From NCBI GenBank assembly GCA_963796055.1, contig CAWCKH010000004.1, positions 672,001-736,000 of the forward strand: a stretch of 64,000 nucleotides of DNA, read 5' to 3'. This DNA comes from an uncultured delta proteobacterium (GTDB taxonomy: Bacteria; Myxococcota; Myxococcia; Myxococcales; Myxococcaceae). A program made the translations under genes and the position numbers. Shown in pieces: positions 32,873 through 38,859 of this stretch (position 1 is the stretch's first letter; every line of letters begins with the position of its first letter). The notes beneath the pieces were generated by a model. It saw nothing but the letters and a program-made list of their open reading frames with translations, was not told the origin of the DNA and did no database searches.

Positions 32873-33337
32873 CTAGGGACCCCCGCAGCTGTGCGAGTTC
32901 GGTCCGCATTCGAGCCCGGAGCAGCACGGGGTGGGGTCGCAGGACTGTCCCAGCTGGGCGCAGGACACCGCGGCCAGGGCGCGTGGGGCGGTGATGAGGA
33001 GGATCGCCGGGATGGCTGCCAGTCCCAGCTGGCGGATCACCCGGCGCCGGGAAAGCGGCGGCTGCGGCCGGGGAACGGGCCTCTCGAGGAGCCGTGCCTT
33101 CCCCAGACGCTCTACGGTGAGACGGACCACCTCGGGGAGCAGCGGGATGCCCTCCTCGGCCAGCGCCTGCCAGATGGCGGTCACCTCGCGCGTCCCATCG
33201 CAAAGCATCCAGATCCGCGCCGCCCGGCCGTCCAGGCACAGCGCCCGGTGGTGCAGCTCGTCGTAGAGCAGCGTCTCGCCCTCGACGTCTTGCCGGAGCA
33301 GGCCGGTGAGGCGTCGCTCTGGACGAAAGCGCGTCAC
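32873..33337 (-). CDS. PqqD/RRE-fold protein fused to a twin-Arg-like leader and a 6-Cys knottin-like C-terminal peptide
   Basis: GTG overlaps the upstream stop (GTGA); LLRQDVEGETLLYD...LCLDGRAARIWMLCDGTREVTAI...LERLGKARLL-type RRE pattern; SRRRVIR...APRALAA; CAQLGQSCDPTPCCSGLECGPNSHSC. Confidence 0.85.
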   Translation of the reverse strand: MTRFRPERRLTGLLRQDVEGETLLYDELHHRALCLDGRAARIWMLCDGTREVTAIWQALAEEGIPLLPEVVRLTVERLGKARLLERPVPRPQPPLSRRRVIRQLGLAAIPAILLITAPRALAAVSCAQLGQSCDPTPCCSGLECGPNSHSCGGP

Positions 33338-36300
33338 CCGCTCGCCCTCCAGCGCCTCCCACCTCGCGCCCGCCGGGCGAGGATCAGGAGGACGAGCCCG
33401 AAGAGCGCCGCCGCGCTCCCCGGAGCGCCCGCGACGGAGCAACCGGTGGACGCAGGTGGCGGCGCCGCCTGCGGCTTCACCACCAGCCGCGCGCTCGGAT
33501 CGCCGAAGAGGTGCCAGGTCCGGCGCAGGTCCGGGTCGGTCACCGCTGACAGGGCACGCCGGGTCGACTCGCCGAGCGTGGCTCCCTCCACCAGGCCACC
33601 GACCAGCACCCGGTGCAGCCGGGCCTGCTGCGAGGAGACCACCATCCCCGACGAGCTCCAGGTCCCCCATGCGCCTCCCTCGGCGCCCAGCAGGGCCTCC
33701 GACAGGCTCTGCCGGTAGAGGTCGTGGAAGAAGCCGGTGAGGCAGGTCATCTGGACGATGAGCCCGGTCTTGCCGCCGTTCACCAGCGCCGCGGCATCGT
33801 CGCTGGACAGCAGATGCCCGTCCCAGAACGACTCCGCGCCGTGCCCCAGGTAGCTGACCAGCGCCGGGCCCCGGTCGAGGGCGACCAGGATGCGCTCGTG
33901 CACCTCGGCGTCGGTCCCGTCGGCGCGGCGTACCACCTCGGTGGTCCAGCCATCGGTGAGCGGTCGCACCTGGCCCAGGGCCTCGCTGAAGTCGGAGACA
34001 TCGTCGCGGTCGGTGATGTGCAGCACCGTCGCCGCGGGGGCGAGCTGCCGCCGGGCGAGGATCTTCTGCACCATCCGCGAGGCATCCTTCGCCGTTCTCG
34101 CCGGCAGGCGGCCCACCGCCAGGGCGGGCTCTCCCGAGCCGTCGAGGTCCGCCAGCGAACCGTCGGAGGCGGTCTCGAGGAACTGGGTCTGCACCAGCAT
34201 CGTGGGGACCCGGTCCTGCCCGGTTCCCAGGTAGTCCTTGGGGTCGAACGATGCGCTGCCCACCAGGAGCAGGAAACGAGGCTGGCGGGTCCATCGCTGC
34301 AGCGCCTCGCGCACCAGCGCCCGGATGGCCTCCGGGTCCTTCTCCCCGGTGGCGAACTCGTCGTAGACGTCGGCCACGTCGATCACCGCCACCTCGAGCC
34401 CCTCGGCCCGTCGCGCCGCCACCAGCGGCTCGAGGGCGGCGGCGAGGCCGGGCTCGGTGACGATCACCAGATCCGCGCCGGGTCCGGAGCGCCAGGTGCT
34501 GGGCACGTTGGGGACCACGGCCTGGGGAGCGCGCACGTCCCCCTCGCGCACCGCGAGCAGCATCCGCTCCCCCTGGGCGGGCGCCGTCACCCATGGCTGG
34601 CCTCCCGGGTCGGTCTCCACCGGCAGCTCGCCGACCCGCAGCGGATCGGTGACGTCGAAGACGTGGGTGTCGGCCGGCAGGAAGCCGTCGAGCTTCGCCC
34701 GGCGACCTCCCTCCAGGGTGAAGCGCAGCGCTCCGGTGCCGGCGGCGATGTGGCGTAGGTAGCTGATGCGCAGCGCCACCTCGAGTGCGACGCCTCCAGT
34801 GTCGAGCGACCGCAGCTCGACCTGGTTGTCGCCCTCCTGGAGAAGTCCGGGCGGGAGGGCGAAGGTGTGCCGGAAGAGGCTCTGGCCCACGCCCTCGGCA
34901 ATCCCCAGCCAGGTCCGGTTGAAGCTCACTCCGACGCTGTGCGAGCCATCGGTGACTCCCTGCAGCTCGACCTCCAGCTGGGTCGAGCCCTGGTTCGCTG
35001 CCACTCCCTCGACGCGGAAGAACCGGGGCTGGGTCGCGGTGTCGAGCACCAGCGGCCCGAAGAACTTCTCGGCGCTCCCGTTCCGGAGGGCCGCGAAGTA
35101 GACCAGATGGTCCTGGATGAGGAGCGTCTCCGGATACAGGGAGGCCTGGCCGGAGGGGGCGGTCACCAGCAGGGTGGGAAGGGTGCTCCCCGGTCCCATC
35201 GCCGCCGTGAGCCAGTAGACTGCGGTTCTCGTCGAACGGGTTTCCAGGCCGAGGCCGTAGAACTCCACCGCGTCGCCCGGCTCGAGCGTGGACCCGGCAG
35301 CGCGCACGCGAAGCGGGATGCTCTCCGCGGCGCGCCAGAGCGACAGCTGCTGCACCGGGGTGCCGAGGGGGATGCCGGCGGCGGCGAGCTGCTCGGCGGA
35401 CACCCGGTACCAGCCCTCGTCGCGGACCACCAGCTTCGCCGCGGGGGCGGCGGCGAGCTTCGCTTGCCGGTCTCGATCGACGAAAGCCCGCGGCGCCACC
35501 GCCCGCGGAAAGCGGGGCGCACGTTCCATCCGCGCCGCCCCCGCCCCGAGCGCCAGCGCCTCGGCGGCGCGATCCAGCCGCGCGGTCTGCGTTCCGCTCC
35601 GGACCGCCTCATTCCGGGGCAGCGGCTCGACGACCTCCGACCAGGTGCTCCGGCCCTGCAGGTCGATCGCCTCGAGCAGGTAGGACGCTCCCGGAGGAGC
35701 CTGCGCGCTCTCCCAGGAATACCCCCGGGCGTCGGGAACCCGTGCCCGCGTCCGGAGCGCCGGACCCTCGAGCAATCCGGGGGTCAGCAGCGTCCTGCGC
35801 CCGCGCCACAGCTGCCACACCCGGTACCCGATGATCCGGAGCTCGTCCGCACCTCGCCAGGAGAGGCGGACCCCGTCGGGCCCGACCGAGCCCTGCGTCG
35901 CCATGAAGCGGACGGCATTGGGGTCCACCGGGCTGAGGGCCAGGGCCAGATAGGCCCAGTTGCCCCCCGCCGCCGGCGTCCAGCTCAGGGTGTTGGTCCC
36001 GGTGCCCGCGGCGGCCACGCTGGAGGCGCCACCGCGCAGCGTGCCGGCGGCGAGGTTCCAGGTGGCGGTCTGCCCGGTGCCGGGAGCCAGCGGCGGCGCG
36101 GCCGGTGCAGCCAGCGCGTCGAGGACGATCTGCCCCGCGGCGGAGAGGACGCCGAGGCTCACCGTCCCACCGGTACCGGCCCCGCTCACCGGGACGGTGG
36201 TCGGGTCGCGCTGGTTGATGCCGGTGAACGACTCCGAGCCGGCGACGATGTTCGCCACCGCACTGGTGGTGACGGTGACCGTCGCCGTGCCCGGCGCGGG

Positions 36301-38859
36301 CTGCTTGAGGCCGAAGAACGACACCCGGGTGTTCCCCTGGGCCGCGGTGCCGAGCTGGGTGAGGGGCACGCCTCCGTAGCTGACCGAGGAGACCGCCGCC
36401 ACGCCGTCGTTGGACACCCCCACCACCAGGAAGCGATCGTTGCCGCTGGCCACGGTGTGCGGCCAGCTGGCCGTGCTCTGTCCGGAGACGGCCACCGAGC
36501 CGACCTGGCAGGCGTCCCCCACTCCGTCGGAGTTGGAGTCGGTCTGCGCGGGGTTGAACACCGCGGGACAGTTGTCACCGCCGTTGGGCACCCCGTCGTT
36601 GTCCGCGTCGGGGGCAAAGGTGGCGGTCACGGTCTGGGTGGCGCTGGCCACGATGTTGTGGCTCTGCCCCCCGGAGTCCGACCAGCTCTGGAAGACGTGG
36701 GGGATGCCCTGGAGGTAGGCCGGCGAGGCCGCGCCGATGGAGTTGGTGGTGCCCTGGATCACCGTCCGGGTGAAGGGAGCGACCGCCGTCTCCGGTCCCA
36801 GGGTGAGCAGCGCCCCGGGGGGGACGGAGTCGACGGTGAGCAGGACCGTCTTCGGCTGGAGGTTGACCGAGGTCTGCCGGGTGAGCCCCCCGGAGTCGGT
36901 CACCGAGAGAATGACCTCGAGGTACGACGGGTAGTCGTGCTCGGGCCCGGGGAAGCTGGCCGAGGCCACCCCGTCGAAGTGGGCCCAGTCGTGGGTGTGG
37001 CAGCTGCCACCCGGGCAATGGTGGATGACCACGTCCCAGTGGAGCGCGGAGGCCGGCAGTGCCCCGTCCTCGGCGTCGGTGGCGTGACCGGAGAAGGTGA
37101 TGCTGTCGCCGACCGCCCAGGTGAGGGAAGGCGACGGCGTGTCGATGACCGGGAGGGGAGGGGTGTTGTCGACGTCGATGGTGACCGAGGCGGTGTCGAA
37201 GGCCCCGAAGGCATCGGTCACCCGGACCGAGGCGGGGTGTGAGCCTGCGCCATAGGTGAACGAGGCAGTGGGCGCGTCCGGCGCGTCGGTGAACAGGCCG
37301 TTGCCGTCCAGGTCCCAGGCGAAGCTGAGCGGCGCCGTGCCGGTGGATGCGGAGGCATCGAAGGCGACGGTGAGCGGCGATGTCCCGCTGGTGGGCGTGG
37401 CGGTGAGGCTGGCCACCGGGGCCCCGTACTGGATCCGCCAGATCCTCCCGCCCACGATGTCGGCAAAGTAGATGTCCCCTCCCGGACCGGCCTGGACGTC
37501 GACGGGGTACGAGGCGTTGCTGGTGAAGACCTGGATCTGGGCGGGATCCGGCAGCCCGTTGGGTCCGGGCAGCATGGCCCAGATGCAGCGCACCGAATAG
37601 TCGGCGAAGAAGAGCGCGTCCCGGAACTGCGGCGGGTACGCGCTGCCCTCGTAGAAGGCCAGCCCGGAGATGGAGGCGCTGCCGCTGGTGCAGACCCCGG
37701 TGTCCCAGCCGGGGGCGCGTCCGTGCTGGTAGGCGTACCAGGGAAAGTCGAGCCTGGTGGGGAAGAAGGTTCCCCCGTCGAAGGGGCCGAGGGGAATCCC
37801 GCCGTCCAGGTTGGTCCCGGTTCCGGCGTCCATCTTGTACATCGCGGTGCAGAAGGGAAAGACGTTGTAACCGCTCTCCTTCTCGATGTTTTCCCAGCAG
37901 GGCCAGCCGAAGTTCGTCACCGGGGACTGGTGGGCGTCCGGGAGGCGGTGGATCTCCTCCCACTTGTTCCAGCCCACGTTGCCGATCCACAGTTCGCTGG
38001 TGCCGGGGCGCATCGTCATCCGGAAGGGATTGCGCAGTCCCACCGCGACGACGCGGTCCGCCGCGGGAAGCCGATTGAACAGCGGGTTGTCGGGGGGCGC
38101 CGTGCCGTCCAGCGGGTCGAGCCGGAGGAGGCTGCCGGAGAAGGTCATCGAGTCCGACGGGGTGAGGAGGTCCTGCGAGCGCAGCGCCCCTCCCTGTCCC
38201 TGCGGATCGCCGCAGGGGTTCCCGGCGTCGGCGGCGAAGGAGTCCCCCTGGTCGGCGAAGACGTAGCTCGCTCCGTCCCCGGCGGAGAGGTACAGCATCC
38301 CGTCCGCCCCGAAGACCAGATCGCCGATCGAGTGACTGGCGTATTGCTGGCACCACTGCCTCTCGATCAGCGGCTGCTCGGGGCCCACCAGCTGGTTGCT
38401 GGCGTCGACGTTCAGCCGCGACAGCCGACCGGTGATGAAGCAGTAGCCGCCGTTGACCCCGCCGGTGCAGGAGCTGCCGTCGTTGGGGTACGTCCCGCCA
38501 TCCGGCGCCTGGGCGGCGGAGTAGAGGATGTAGACGTAGGGGATGGCCGGGAACGCCGGATGGATGGCGAGCCCGAGGAGCCCACGATCGCCTCCGTTGA
38601 ACACCTTGTCGCGGATGTCCAGCACCACATCGGGCGTGGAGTCGGTGAGACCATCGAAGACCTTGAGCACGCCCTTGCGCTCGGCGACGAAGACTCGCCC
38701 GTCGGGGGCGAAGCGGAAGGCGACCGGATTGTCCAGCCCGCTGAAGATGCTCGTCTGGCTGAAGTTGGGCGAGTAGAGCTGCGCCCGGGCCAGGCCGGCG
38801 AGCAGCGCGACGGCAAGCGCGACCGAGCAGCGCAGTCGCAGACCTCGCCGTCCACCCAT
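33334..38859 (-). CDS. Large secreted multidomain protein: glucose/sorbosone (PQQ-type) dehydrogenase propeller + PKD/Ig + TSP3 repeat + C25 (gingipain-like) cysteine peptidase + MYXO-CTERM-like anchor
   Basis: Signal peptide ending LARA; DRGLLGLAIHP, GMLYLSAGDG, GLRNPFR; FAWDLDGNG; DADNDGVPNGGDNCPAVFNPAQTDSNSDGVGDAC; EGWYRV, VYDEF, AVGRLP, YLGHG, MTCLTGFF, LFGDP; GCSVAG + TM + RRARGGRR. Confidence 0.9.
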   Translation of the reverse strand: MGGRRGLRLRCSVALAVALLAGLARAQLYSPNFSQTSIFSGLDNPVAFRFAPDGRVFVAERKGVLKVFDGLTDSTPDVVLDIRDKVFNGGDRGLLGLAIHPAFPAIPYVYILYSAAQAPDGGTYPNDGSSCTGGVNGGYCFITGRLSRLNVDASNQLVGPEQPLIERQWCQQYASHSIGDLVFGADGMLYLSAGDGASYVFADQGDSFAADAGNPCGDPQGQGGALRSQDLLTPSDSMTFSGSLLRLDPLDGTAPPDNPLFNRLPAADRVVAVGLRNPFRMTMRPGTSELWIGNVGWNKWEEIHRLPDAHQSPVTNFGWPCWENIEKESGYNVFPFCTAMYKMDAGTGTNLDGGIPLGPFDGGTFFPTRLDFPWYAYQHGRAPGWDTGVCTSGSASISGLAFYEGSAYPPQFRDALFFADYSVRCIWAMLPGPNGLPDPAQIQVFTSNASYPVDVQAGPGGDIYFADIVGGRIWRIQYGAPVASLTATPTSGTSPLTVAFDASASTGTAPLSFAWDLDGNGLFTDAPDAPTASFTYGAGSHPASVRVTDAFGAFDTASVTIDVDNTPPLPVIDTPSPSLTWAVGDSITFSGHATDAEDGALPASALHWDVVIHHCPGGSCHTHDWAHFDGVASASFPGPEHDYPSYLEVILSVTDSGGLTRQTSVNLQPKTVLLTVDSVPPGALLTLGPETAVAPFTRTVIQGTTNSIGAASPAYLQGIPHVFQSWSDSGGQSHNIVASATQTVTATFAPDADNDGVPNGGDNCPAVFNPAQTDSNSDGVGDACQVGSVAVSGQSTASWPHTVASGNDRFLVVGVSNDGVAAVSSVSYGGVPLTQLGTAAQGNTRVSFFGLKQPAPGTATVTVTTSAVANIVAGSESFTGINQRDPTTVPVSGAGTGGTVSLGVLSAAGQIVLDALAAPAAPPLAPGTGQTATWNLAAGTLRGGASSVAAAGTGTNTLSWTPAAGGNWAYLALALSPVDPNAVRFMATQGSVGPDGVRLSWRGADELRIIGYRVWQLWRGRRTLLTPGLLEGPALRTRARVPDARGYSWESAQAPPGASYLLEAIDLQGRSTWSEVVEPLPRNEAVRSGTQTARLDRAAEALALGAGAARMERAPRFPRAVAPRAFVDRDRQAKLAAAPAAKLVVRDEGWYRVSAEQLAAAGIPLGTPVQQLSLWRAAESIPLRVRAAGSTLEPGDAVEFYGLGLETRSTRTAVYWLTAAMGPGSTLPTLLVTAPSGQASLYPETLLIQDHLVYFAALRNGSAEKFFGPLVLDTATQPRFFRVEGVAANQGSTQLEVELQGVTDGSHSVGVSFNRTWLGIAEGVGQSLFRHTFALPPGLLQEGDNQVELRSLDTGGVALEVALRISYLRHIAAGTGALRFTLEGGRRAKLDGFLPADTHVFDVTDPLRVGELPVETDPGGQPWVTAPAQGERMLLAVREGDVRAPQAVVPNVPSTWRSGPGADLVIVTEPGLAAALEPLVAARRAEGLEVAVIDVADVYDEFATGEKDPEAIRALVREALQRWTRQPRFLLLVGSASFDPKDYLGTGQDRVPTMLVQTQFLETASDGSLADLDGSGEPALAVGRLPARTAKDASRMVQKILARRQLAPAATVLHITDRDDVSDFSEALGQVRPLTDGWTTEVVRRADGTDAEVHERILVALDRGPALVSYLGHGAESFWDGHLLSSDDAAALVNGGKTGLIVQMTCLTGFFHDLYRQSLSEALLGAEGGAWGTWSSSGMVVSSQQARLHRVLVGGLVEGATLGESTRRALSAVTDPDLRRTWHLFGDPSARLVVKPQAAPPPASTGCSVAGAPGSAAALFGLVLLILARRARGGRRWRASG

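Follow-up and report, generated by a model that had tools for sequence, protein, structure and literature searches.

A C25 protease-like protein and an RRE-knottin precursor encoded by overlapping genes in a Myxococcaceae genome: a kinase-linked peptide family with a partial C25 association

The overlapping gene pair and its two products

We analysed a 64,000-nucleotide stretch of DNA (the window) from an uncultured delta proteobacterium labelled Myxococcaceae (GenBank GCA_963796055.1, contig CAWCKH010000004.1, positions 672,001 to 736,000), and within it two overlapping minus-strand genes. The upstream gene (33334..38859) encodes a secreted 1841-amino acid (aa) C25 protein that joins a variable passenger, a junction, an immunoglobulin (Ig)-like domain, a PorU-like C25 module and a MYXO-CTERM-like anchor. 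The small downstream gene (32873..33337) encodes a 154-aa precursor with a recognition element of the kind that binds ribosomally synthesized peptides (RiPP recognition element, RRE), an internal twin-arginine signal and a six-Cys knottin core. The constant partner of this precursor family is an HPr-kinase-like enzyme, and the link between C25 and precursor genes is real but partial. The TGA codon of the C25 gene (33336-33334) overlaps the GTG codon of the precursor gene (33337-33335), and the codon positions confirm the GTGA at 33337-33334 reported in a first-pass annotation of this DNA. A ribosome-binding site, GGAGGG (33350-33345), lies 7 bases before the precursor start.

The RRE, of the PqqD-like type, occupies residues 1 to ~87 (33077..33337) by profile and structure match. 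In the AlphaFold model of the precursor (predicted local distance difference test, pLDDT, 88.9) the RRE forms a three-stranded sheet and then three helices, followed by a helix (residues 97-104), a strand (residues 112-115) and the knottin. The best structural match was the lasso RRE TbiB1 (probability 1.00, target TM-score 0.74-0.76, E ~1e-3) and all 83 aligned relatives matched PF05402 at E ≤ 0.1, bearing out the PqqD/RRE fold read in the first pass. The score against the model for PqqD of pyrroloquinoline quinone (PQQ) biosynthesis (TIGR03859) was 18.2 bits, under the 46-bit equivalog cut-off. A link to PQQ biosynthesis through the GSDH domain and the PqqD-like fold was rejected, because the passengers of paralogous C25 proteins are unrelated to one another although the neighbouring precursor is of one type.

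The twin-arginine translocation (Tat)-type signal (residues 96-123, 32969..33052) consists of S-R-R-R-V-I-R, an uncharged hydrophobic (h-) region, a P-x7-P strand (residues 110-118) and an Ala-x-Ala-type end, and TatC is present in the genome. Ser125 (32963..32965), seven residues past Pro118, is the candidate phosphorylation site. The core (residues 123-154, 32876..32971) carries six Cys in C-C-CC-C-C spacing and superposes on knottins with 1.1-1.6 Å over ~30 residues, with weak E-values; this spacing and match agree with the earlier view of the Cys-rich tail as a knottin. Matches of cores to toxin Pfam families were weak (best E 8e-4) and indicate scaffold only. The last residue of the window core is Pro, and the eight residues that most often end a core in the family do not include Ser. 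The closest relatives of the precursor are labelled Myxococcaceae; the genomic contexts of the four nearest proteins (69-78% identity) were not recovered by the metagenome scan or the genus search, and the nearest ESM Atlas clusters were without names or called 'PqqD family'.

The C25 protein starts with a predicted Sec signal peptide read from the sequence (residues 1-26, ending A-R-A; 38782..38859). A GSDH-type beta-propeller passenger (Pfam match at residues 42-332, E 1.6e-29) extends to residue ~480 (37420..38736). It is followed by a PKD domain below cut-off (residues 484-560, 37180..37410; 18.7 vs. 23.5 bits) and by thrombospondin type 3 repeats matched by TSP_3 (residues 751-786, 36502..36609). 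The P-N-A-V junction (residues 980-983, 35911..35922) falls in a linker modelled as disordered and is a candidate for PorU-type cleavage; it precedes a seven-stranded Ig-like domain defined by the model and by relatives (residues ~985-1075, 35635..35907). PorU-like N-terminal beta domains (residues 1141-1460, 34480..35439; structure match) lead to the Peptidase_C25 catalytic domain (residues 1465-1792, 33484..34467; 218 bits vs. a cut-off of 23). Its dyad, placed by the first-pass annotation at the same codons, is His1673 (CAC, 33843-33841) and Cys1706 (TGC, 33744-33742). Profile searches agreed with that annotation for the C25 protein (Peptidase_C25, E 2.3e-64) and fell just under the cut-off for the precursor (PqqD, 22.6 vs. 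23.4 bits). The MYXO-CTERM-like sorting signal (33361..33447), with a G-C motif, a hydrophobic stretch and an Arg tail, scored 16.9 bits against TIGR03901 (cut-off 20). MYXO-CTERM tails have been described as a basis for surface placement (PMC11980579), and the tail is predicted to place the C25 enzyme on the cell surface.

The precursor family and its kinase

The family was pooled from 34 close relatives, 74 genome loci, 80 metagenome loci and the best 150 of 8178 cluster matches, which gave 360 distinct full-length members; 354 were parsed and 195 were left at 60% identity. Positions P+n are counted from the second proline of P-x7-P (Pro118 in the window precursor). The RRE was joined to signal and core in the 354 parsed members. 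The twin arginine, in the motif [ST]-R-R-x-hydrophobic-hydrophobic, was found in 190 of the 195 non-redundant members, and an Ala-x-Ala-type end in 182. The h-region was without charge in 311/354 members, two prolines stood eight residues apart in 348/354 and Ala was conserved at P+5. Ser or Thr occupied P+7 in 179/195 (background 19%) and lay within P+6 to P+8 in 342/354. Arg or Lys occurred between P+1 and P+6 in only 34/195, and the four closest relatives shift this Arg by two positions relative to the window precursor.

Everything past the P+7 region was variable. The number of Cys was even in 181 and odd in 3 of the 195 members, knottin spacing was found in 123/195 cores, and some cores were Gly-rich, Ig-like or built of Thr-Pro repeats. 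Non-Cys cargo on the same RRE-Tat head included IPT/TIG domains, a glycine-rich domain and Thr-Pro repeats (L048:9938-12487, L050:10004-11104, L053:9977-10678 and L039:9995-10534). Because the twin arginine, h-region and Ala-x-Ala-type end are conserved, the remainder varies and Arg/Lys is rare, the segment reads as an export signal with swappable cargo and not as a protease-specific leader. What the first-pass annotation called a 'leader' thus resembles a Tat signal placed inside the chain and equipped with a site for signal peptidase. Two observations weigh against this assignment: the Tat model TIGR01409 was matched, weakly, by only 5/83 members, and the signal does not stand at the N-terminus but 95 residues into the protein.

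Covariation placed the pair Leu33 (RRE beta3)-Leu114 at rank 2 of all pairs, at an effective depth of 267 at which single pairs are noisy, and alpha3-Ala117 pairs at ranks 15 and 19; contacts in cis and in trans are not separable by these data. Since Leu114 covaries with Leu33 of RRE beta3, covariation suggests that the RRE holds its own signal strand. At E ≤ 1e-10, 4681 clusters matched the precursor, part of them stand-alone RREs. Such stand-alone RREs, in Chloroflexota and others (L055-L072), have weaker kinase and NTP_transf_5 matches nearby and represent an unfused form of the cassette.

Partner genes were counted in 51 genome loci with the fusion (L004-L054), many of them cut by contig ends, after 23 stand-alone-RRE loci had been set aside. 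The HPr-kinase-like gene was present in 33, the nucleotidyltransferase NTP_transf_5 (PF14907) in 32 and C25 in 15. We then took whole genomes: 61 acidobacterial genomes from the family of G042 (labelled Pyrinomonadaceae; at least 80% completeness requested). Kin are not independent and most of the genomes are drafts, so counts are given and no P values. Precursor and kinase were found in the same 37 genomes, one of which (G060) is unpublished, and both were missing from the same 24. Among 12 genus relatives of the source genome, precursor and kinase occurred together in the same 10 and C25 in 11; in 28 genomes of other genera, kinase was found in none and C25 in 5. Precursors were found in 7/201 Chloroflexota genomes, with the kinase in 6/6 tested. 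The 'minimal two-gene module' of the first-pass annotation is not supported by these counts, as the kinase was always present with the precursor (37/37 acidobacterial and 10/10 genus genomes).

Two acidobacterial genomes, G081 and G098, hold 29 and 43 precursor matches and one kinase each, with diverse Cys-rich cores in the fetched copies (L225-L229 in G081, L192-L211 in G098), and are one-enzyme, many-precursor peptide libraries. Neither gave a C25 match, nor a PF14907 match at 1e-10. PF14907 as an obligate partner was rejected; besides its absence at 1e-10 from these two genomes, it is common in genomes without precursor. Beside a kinase-precursor pair a MauE-redoxin gene was seen (L036:7985-8968), and a TIGR03032 gene directly follows a precursor (L212:6413-7597).

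The source genome has one HPr-kinase-like gene, three precursors and four C25 genes. Its main cluster lies on the same contig ~1.1 Mb away from the window pair, in the order kinase, opposite-strand resistance-nodulation-division (RND) operon, precursor, NTP_transf_5, C25, precursor, NTP_transf_5, C25, C25. The RND efflux operon (L001:7694-13275; G000:C4 ~1802.7-1808.3 kb), which separates the kinase from the first precursor, also flanks the precursor in several relatives. Two more PF14907 genes do not adjoin a precursor (G000:C4:938136-938825 and G000:C3:695193-695657). Inside the window, the whole-genome profile search gave no match for kinase or nucleotidyltransferase. The earlier statement that no modifying enzyme lies nearby therefore stands for these two enzymes within the window (no profile search was aimed at radical SAM, YcaO, lasso cyclase or lanthionine synthetase), and fails genome-wide, where the kinase and two cognate nucleotidyltransferases are found ~1.1 Mb off. 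We propose that the window pair is a satellite copy that the main cluster serves in trans.

The four flanking genes profiled encode an extracytoplasmic function (ECF) sigma factor, a zf-HC2 anti-sigma-type protein, a DUF3106 protein and an acetyl-CoA hydrolase/GNAT protein. Two minus-strand frames upstream of the C25 gene (38945-39395) resemble what we take to be pieces of a CorA magnesium transporter, which suggests a decayed gene bordering the satellite pair. A promoter and terminator scan found none. No RNA sequencing runs were listed for the source, and four DNA runs, holding short near-identical pieces only, added no information.

Association and architecture of the C25 partner

The C25 gene flanked the precursor in 12/14 Myxococcaceae-type loci and in 3/37 other loci. 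The two genes were adjacent in three phyla and with two C25 architectures. In Chloroflexota G045, 3/5 precursor matches are followed downstream by a C25 gene, here of the different, propeptide-bearing architecture, and C25 was found in 2/5 further Chloroflexota tested. Locus L015 carries tandem C25-precursor pairs in the gene order of the window. In the 61-genome sample, C25 was present in 29/37 genomes with precursor and in 3/24 without. The conserved co-occurrence on which the first-pass annotation turned was thus found, both as adjacency and across genomes. Compact cores were carried by 43/46 C25-linked precursors vs. 48/132 others, a set that contains short contigs and to which two genomes contribute many copies. 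The three precursor types of the source genome each lie beside their own C25 type, the window pair forming its own lineage, and trees of 37 C25 modules (a quick tree) and 46 precursors showed matching groups.

Several counts weigh against a functional partnership. C25 was not found in 8/37 precursor-bearing genomes, which include G060 and the 29- and 43-precursor genomes; of five distant precursor-bearing genomes, four were without C25 match and the fifth had only weak partial ones. Both genes were found in 29 genomes; in only 7 of these do they lie within 10 kb of each other (9 places, hand count), and in 4 they are >40 kb apart on one contig. No orthologue of the exact window pair was found in the 12 genus relatives, and congruent trees can come from cassette duplication alone. 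Because C25 was not found in these 8/37 and 4/5 genomes, any role of C25 is optional.

These figures bear on a reading without direct partnership, in which the knottin, modified by the kinase and exported by Tat, acts alone, in defence, signalling or metal binding, and C25 shares co-moved surface or exopolysaccharide islands. The precursor multiplies in genomes without C25 match, the genes are mostly apart where both occur, C25 occurs without precursor in 3/24 and 5/28 genomes, and acidobacterial loci hold O-antigen-ligase-like, Wzc-like, Wza and DUF4214 genes. Such a reading leaves unaccounted for an adjacency that repeats in three phyla with two C25 architectures, pairs that are duplicated (in tandem in L015, as a satellite in the window), the skewed co-occurrence, and the nearly uniform compactness of C25-linked cores. 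We consider it possible, with a probability clearly on the low side.

A second reading, that of the first-pass annotation, makes C25 an Arg/Lys-specific maturase: the two genes would suffice by themselves, and C25 would cut the RRE-leader off the knottin at the cell surface. The intact dyad, invariant in 37 modules, the gene overlap, the real co-occurrence and Arg119 of the window precursor, four residues before the core, would fit. Arg/Lys, however, occurs near the core in only 34/195 members and moves by two positions in the closest four relatives, the Ala-x-Ala-type end (182/195) offers another junction, and the same precursor design persists in genomes without C25 match. Moreover, the RRE would stay cytoplasmic while C25 is Sec-exported. 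Because the kinase is the constant partner and C25 was not found in 8/37 genomes, including those with the largest precursor sets, C25 is unlikely to be the maturase; we regard the full two-gene reading as very improbable.

The C25 protein itself was compared with known C25 enzymes. The conserved section of the fused C25 proteins is their last 830-860 residues, and the N-terminal passenger varies between paralogues. In the model (pLDDT 86.8), the junction is disordered and is followed by the Ig-like domain, a disordered linker, the beta domains and the catalytic domain. PorU was the top Foldseek match (E 4.5e-32), and 567 residues, including the N-terminal domains, align to it (model 155-823 on 6za2 29-791, root-mean-square deviation (rmsd) 5.9 Å). 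The dyad aligned to PorU and RgpB and was invariant in 37/37 C25 modules. A candidate for an Arg-selecting S1 Asp is the residue before the invariant Phe1624, roughly at the position of RgpB Asp163; it is Asp here and varies in homologues, its placement is unsure and it was not used.

The junction motif P-[TSN]-[AGS]-[AVIL] was found in 16/48 junction windows vs. 5/419 control windows, and P-[TSN] in 33/48 junctions. The Ig-like domain, which has no Pfam match, is present in fused C25 relatives. The same domain stands at the C-terminus of three secreted proteins of Chloroflexota (E 2e-8 to 2e-7), and two of the three directly adjoin a stand-alone C25 that lacks it. This split vs. fused pattern suggests that the domain is a sorting signal and C25 its enzyme. 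In the source genome the domain is confined to the four C25 proteins, and no free cargo protein with it was found; action in cis is thus the simplest reading. Two of the Chloroflexota Ig-ended proteins have choice-of-anchor Q matches (L212:7924-12079, L053:16269-17294).

Likeness to PorU has limits. The catalytic domain alone is nearer RgpB than latent PorU (Z 37.8 vs. 21.7), the PorU profile (NF033707) scored 158 bits with an equivalog cut-off of 420, and the strict junction motif is absent in 32/48 C25 proteins. A search for SprA of type IX secretion found none, and control genomes also gave no signal.

The profile search found no Propeptide_C25 match in the fused C25 proteins. This would fit a third reading, the alternative given in the first-pass annotation, in which the knottin is the cognate inhibitor or latency factor of the PorU-like C25 during export, replacing a propeptide, with phosphorylation tuning binding. 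Knottins are a common protease-inhibitor scaffold, translational coupling would match the amounts of the two proteins, and paralog types pair. The cores, in contrast, have no conserved reactive-site residue besides Cys and Gly, Chloroflexota C25s retain a propeptide and yet adjoin a precursor, C25 genes exceed precursors at some loci (4 vs. 3 in the source genome), and most family members are without a nearby C25. We judge this reading unlikely, and less probable than independent action of the knottin.

In Acidobacteriota, loci L015, L027, L216, L218 and L221-L224 lie amid O-antigen-ligase-like, tetratricopeptide repeat (TPR), Wzc-like and DUF4214 genes, and the C25 proteins end at the catalytic domain without an anchor. 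Secreted NHL-repeat and S53-type proteins near Acidobacteriaceae precursors end in a G-x-A-x-P-V-x-T-P-like sequence, perhaps a C-terminal signal (L035:438-12299, L049:3475-7898).

Proposed mechanism and comparison with known systems

For the precursor we propose that the usual beta3/alpha3 cleft of the RRE would clamp the P110-P118 strand of the attached signal and so fix Ser125 for the kinase. By analogy with phosphorylated lasso peptides, Ser125 is likely phosphorylated, by the sole HPr-kinase-like enzyme, and the NTP_transf_5 enzyme may add an optional hexose. In pseudomycoidin, an HprK kinase and PsmN yield phospho-hexosylated Ser, and PsmN is needed for the hexose on the phosphate (PMC6993621, PMC8498205, PMC11912497). 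The internal position of Ser125 counts against the analogy, since characterised lasso kinases are described as modifying a C-terminal Ser (PMC8498205). The modified precursor would be exported by Tat and cut after Ala122 or Ala123 by signal peptidase I, and three disulfides would form outside the cytoplasm. That maturation follows this route of kinase, Tat and signal peptidase, with no need for C25, is in our view probable.

The C25, predicted to be surface-anchored, would use the finished knottin as a partner and would not mature it. The cut made by PorU falls in a flexible linker that precedes the Ig-like C-terminal domain (CTD) of its cargo, with a PT/GI consensus in Prevotella intermedia and usually a small +1 residue, as described in PMC11969387. 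It acts as a sortase: the C-terminus freed by the cut is linked to a sugar that carries a seryl, glycyl or alanyl group (PMC7468200). Because of the PorU-like build, the P-N-A-V junction and the Ig-like domain, C25 may ligate its passenger to the peptide: it would cut at P-N/A-V, which separates the GSDH-PKD passenger from the Ig-like domain, and would transfer the passenger to an amine acceptor, for which the small residue at the N-terminus of the modified knottin is the likeliest candidate. These last two steps are the weakest of the scheme. The chances of the whole explanation, in which C25 acts in the manner of a transpeptidase and works together with the finished peptide, appear to us evenly balanced. 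That the peptide N-terminus is the acceptor is doubtful. Equally doubtful is peptide-anchored surface display outside Bacteroidota, in which a PorU-like transpeptidase would release its variable passenger at the P-T/N-A-V junction and ligate it to the N-terminal end of a Tat-exported, phospho-glycosylated knottin. A self-chaperoned ribosomal peptide would there do what an amino-acyl linking sugar does in type IX secretion.

This precursor design, which unites RRE, export signal and a disulfide-rich core on a single chain and uses one kinase for up to dozens of cores, offers a large minable source of bacterial knottin-like peptides. For an orphan family of HPr-kinase-like enzymes it names a candidate substrate residue, and it gives NTP_transf_5 enzymes a second setting. 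The C25 link provides a first concrete hypothesis for PorU-like proteins outside Bacteroidota, with a defined junction cut and a defined acceptor; if true, it would mean a new mode of surface-protein anchoring and a new protein ligase.

Every part of the system has a known relative, and neither the RRE-signal-core fusion nor the C25 pairing is covered by a family model in profile and ESM Atlas look-ups. A literature search, outside which supplements and subscription journals lie, found no paper on the precursor-kinase family or the C25 link. The term 'C25' occurs neither in the main texts of the two RRE-Finder papers, whose supplements may list members, nor in the myxosortase preprint.

The phospho- and phosphoglyco-lasso set (paeninodin PadeK/B1; pseudomycoidin PsmK, PsmN) resembles the precursor system in combining an RRE, an HPr-kinase homologue and an NTP_transf_5-type enzyme acting on a peptide Ser, as far as described in PMC6993621, PMC8498205 and PMC11912497. 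We infer that PsmN belongs to PF14907 from its description as an uncharacterised NTP transferase. Unlike in the lasso set, precursor and RRE form one chain, with a Tat-type signal where lasso precursors have their leader; the conserved Ser is found close to the N-terminus of the core and not C-terminally, and the core is disulfide-knotted. Lasso cyclase, B2 protease and ABC exporter were not seen among the recurring neighbours listed, no profile search having been aimed at cyclase or B2. The HPr-rel-A cassette (TIGR04352 kinase, TIGR04353 PqqD) has a related kinase (E 7.6e-18), and TIGR04353 was matched by 42/83 members; the kinase differs in scoring 64.6 bits with a cut-off of 200, and the RRE in being fused to signal and core and not stand-alone.

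Bufferins, signal-peptide-bearing RiPPs, are like the precursor in being Cys-containing, modified in the cytoplasm, exported by a general route and cut by signal peptidase, as described in PMC11626156. They differ in using Sec and not Tat, and a multinuclear non-haem iron-dependent oxidative (MNIO) enzyme and not a kinase, in having a separate RRE partner and in having no protease partner. The core shares the C-C-CC-C-C spacing and the fold (rmsd 1.1-1.6 Å) of inhibitor cystine knot peptides; unlike them it is bacterial, RRE-led and likely phosphorylated.

The C25 protein resembles the type IX sortase PorU (PDB 6za2) in the order of beta domains and catalytic domain and in the His/Cys dyad, and its upstream P-T/N-A-V-like junction and seven-stranded Ig-like domain recall the CTD signal. 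Unlike PorU, it reaches 158 of the 420 bits, fuses passenger and signal-like domain in cis, comes from a non-Bacteroidota host and ends in MYXO-CTERM (in nothing in Acidobacteriota) and not in a CTD. With the Arg-gingipain RgpB and with Kgp it shares the catalytic fold (Z 35-38, rmsd 2.3-2.5 Å) and the dyad; it differs from them in lacking a propeptide match, in its extra PorU-type domains and in a partner precursor without a conserved Arg/Lys site.

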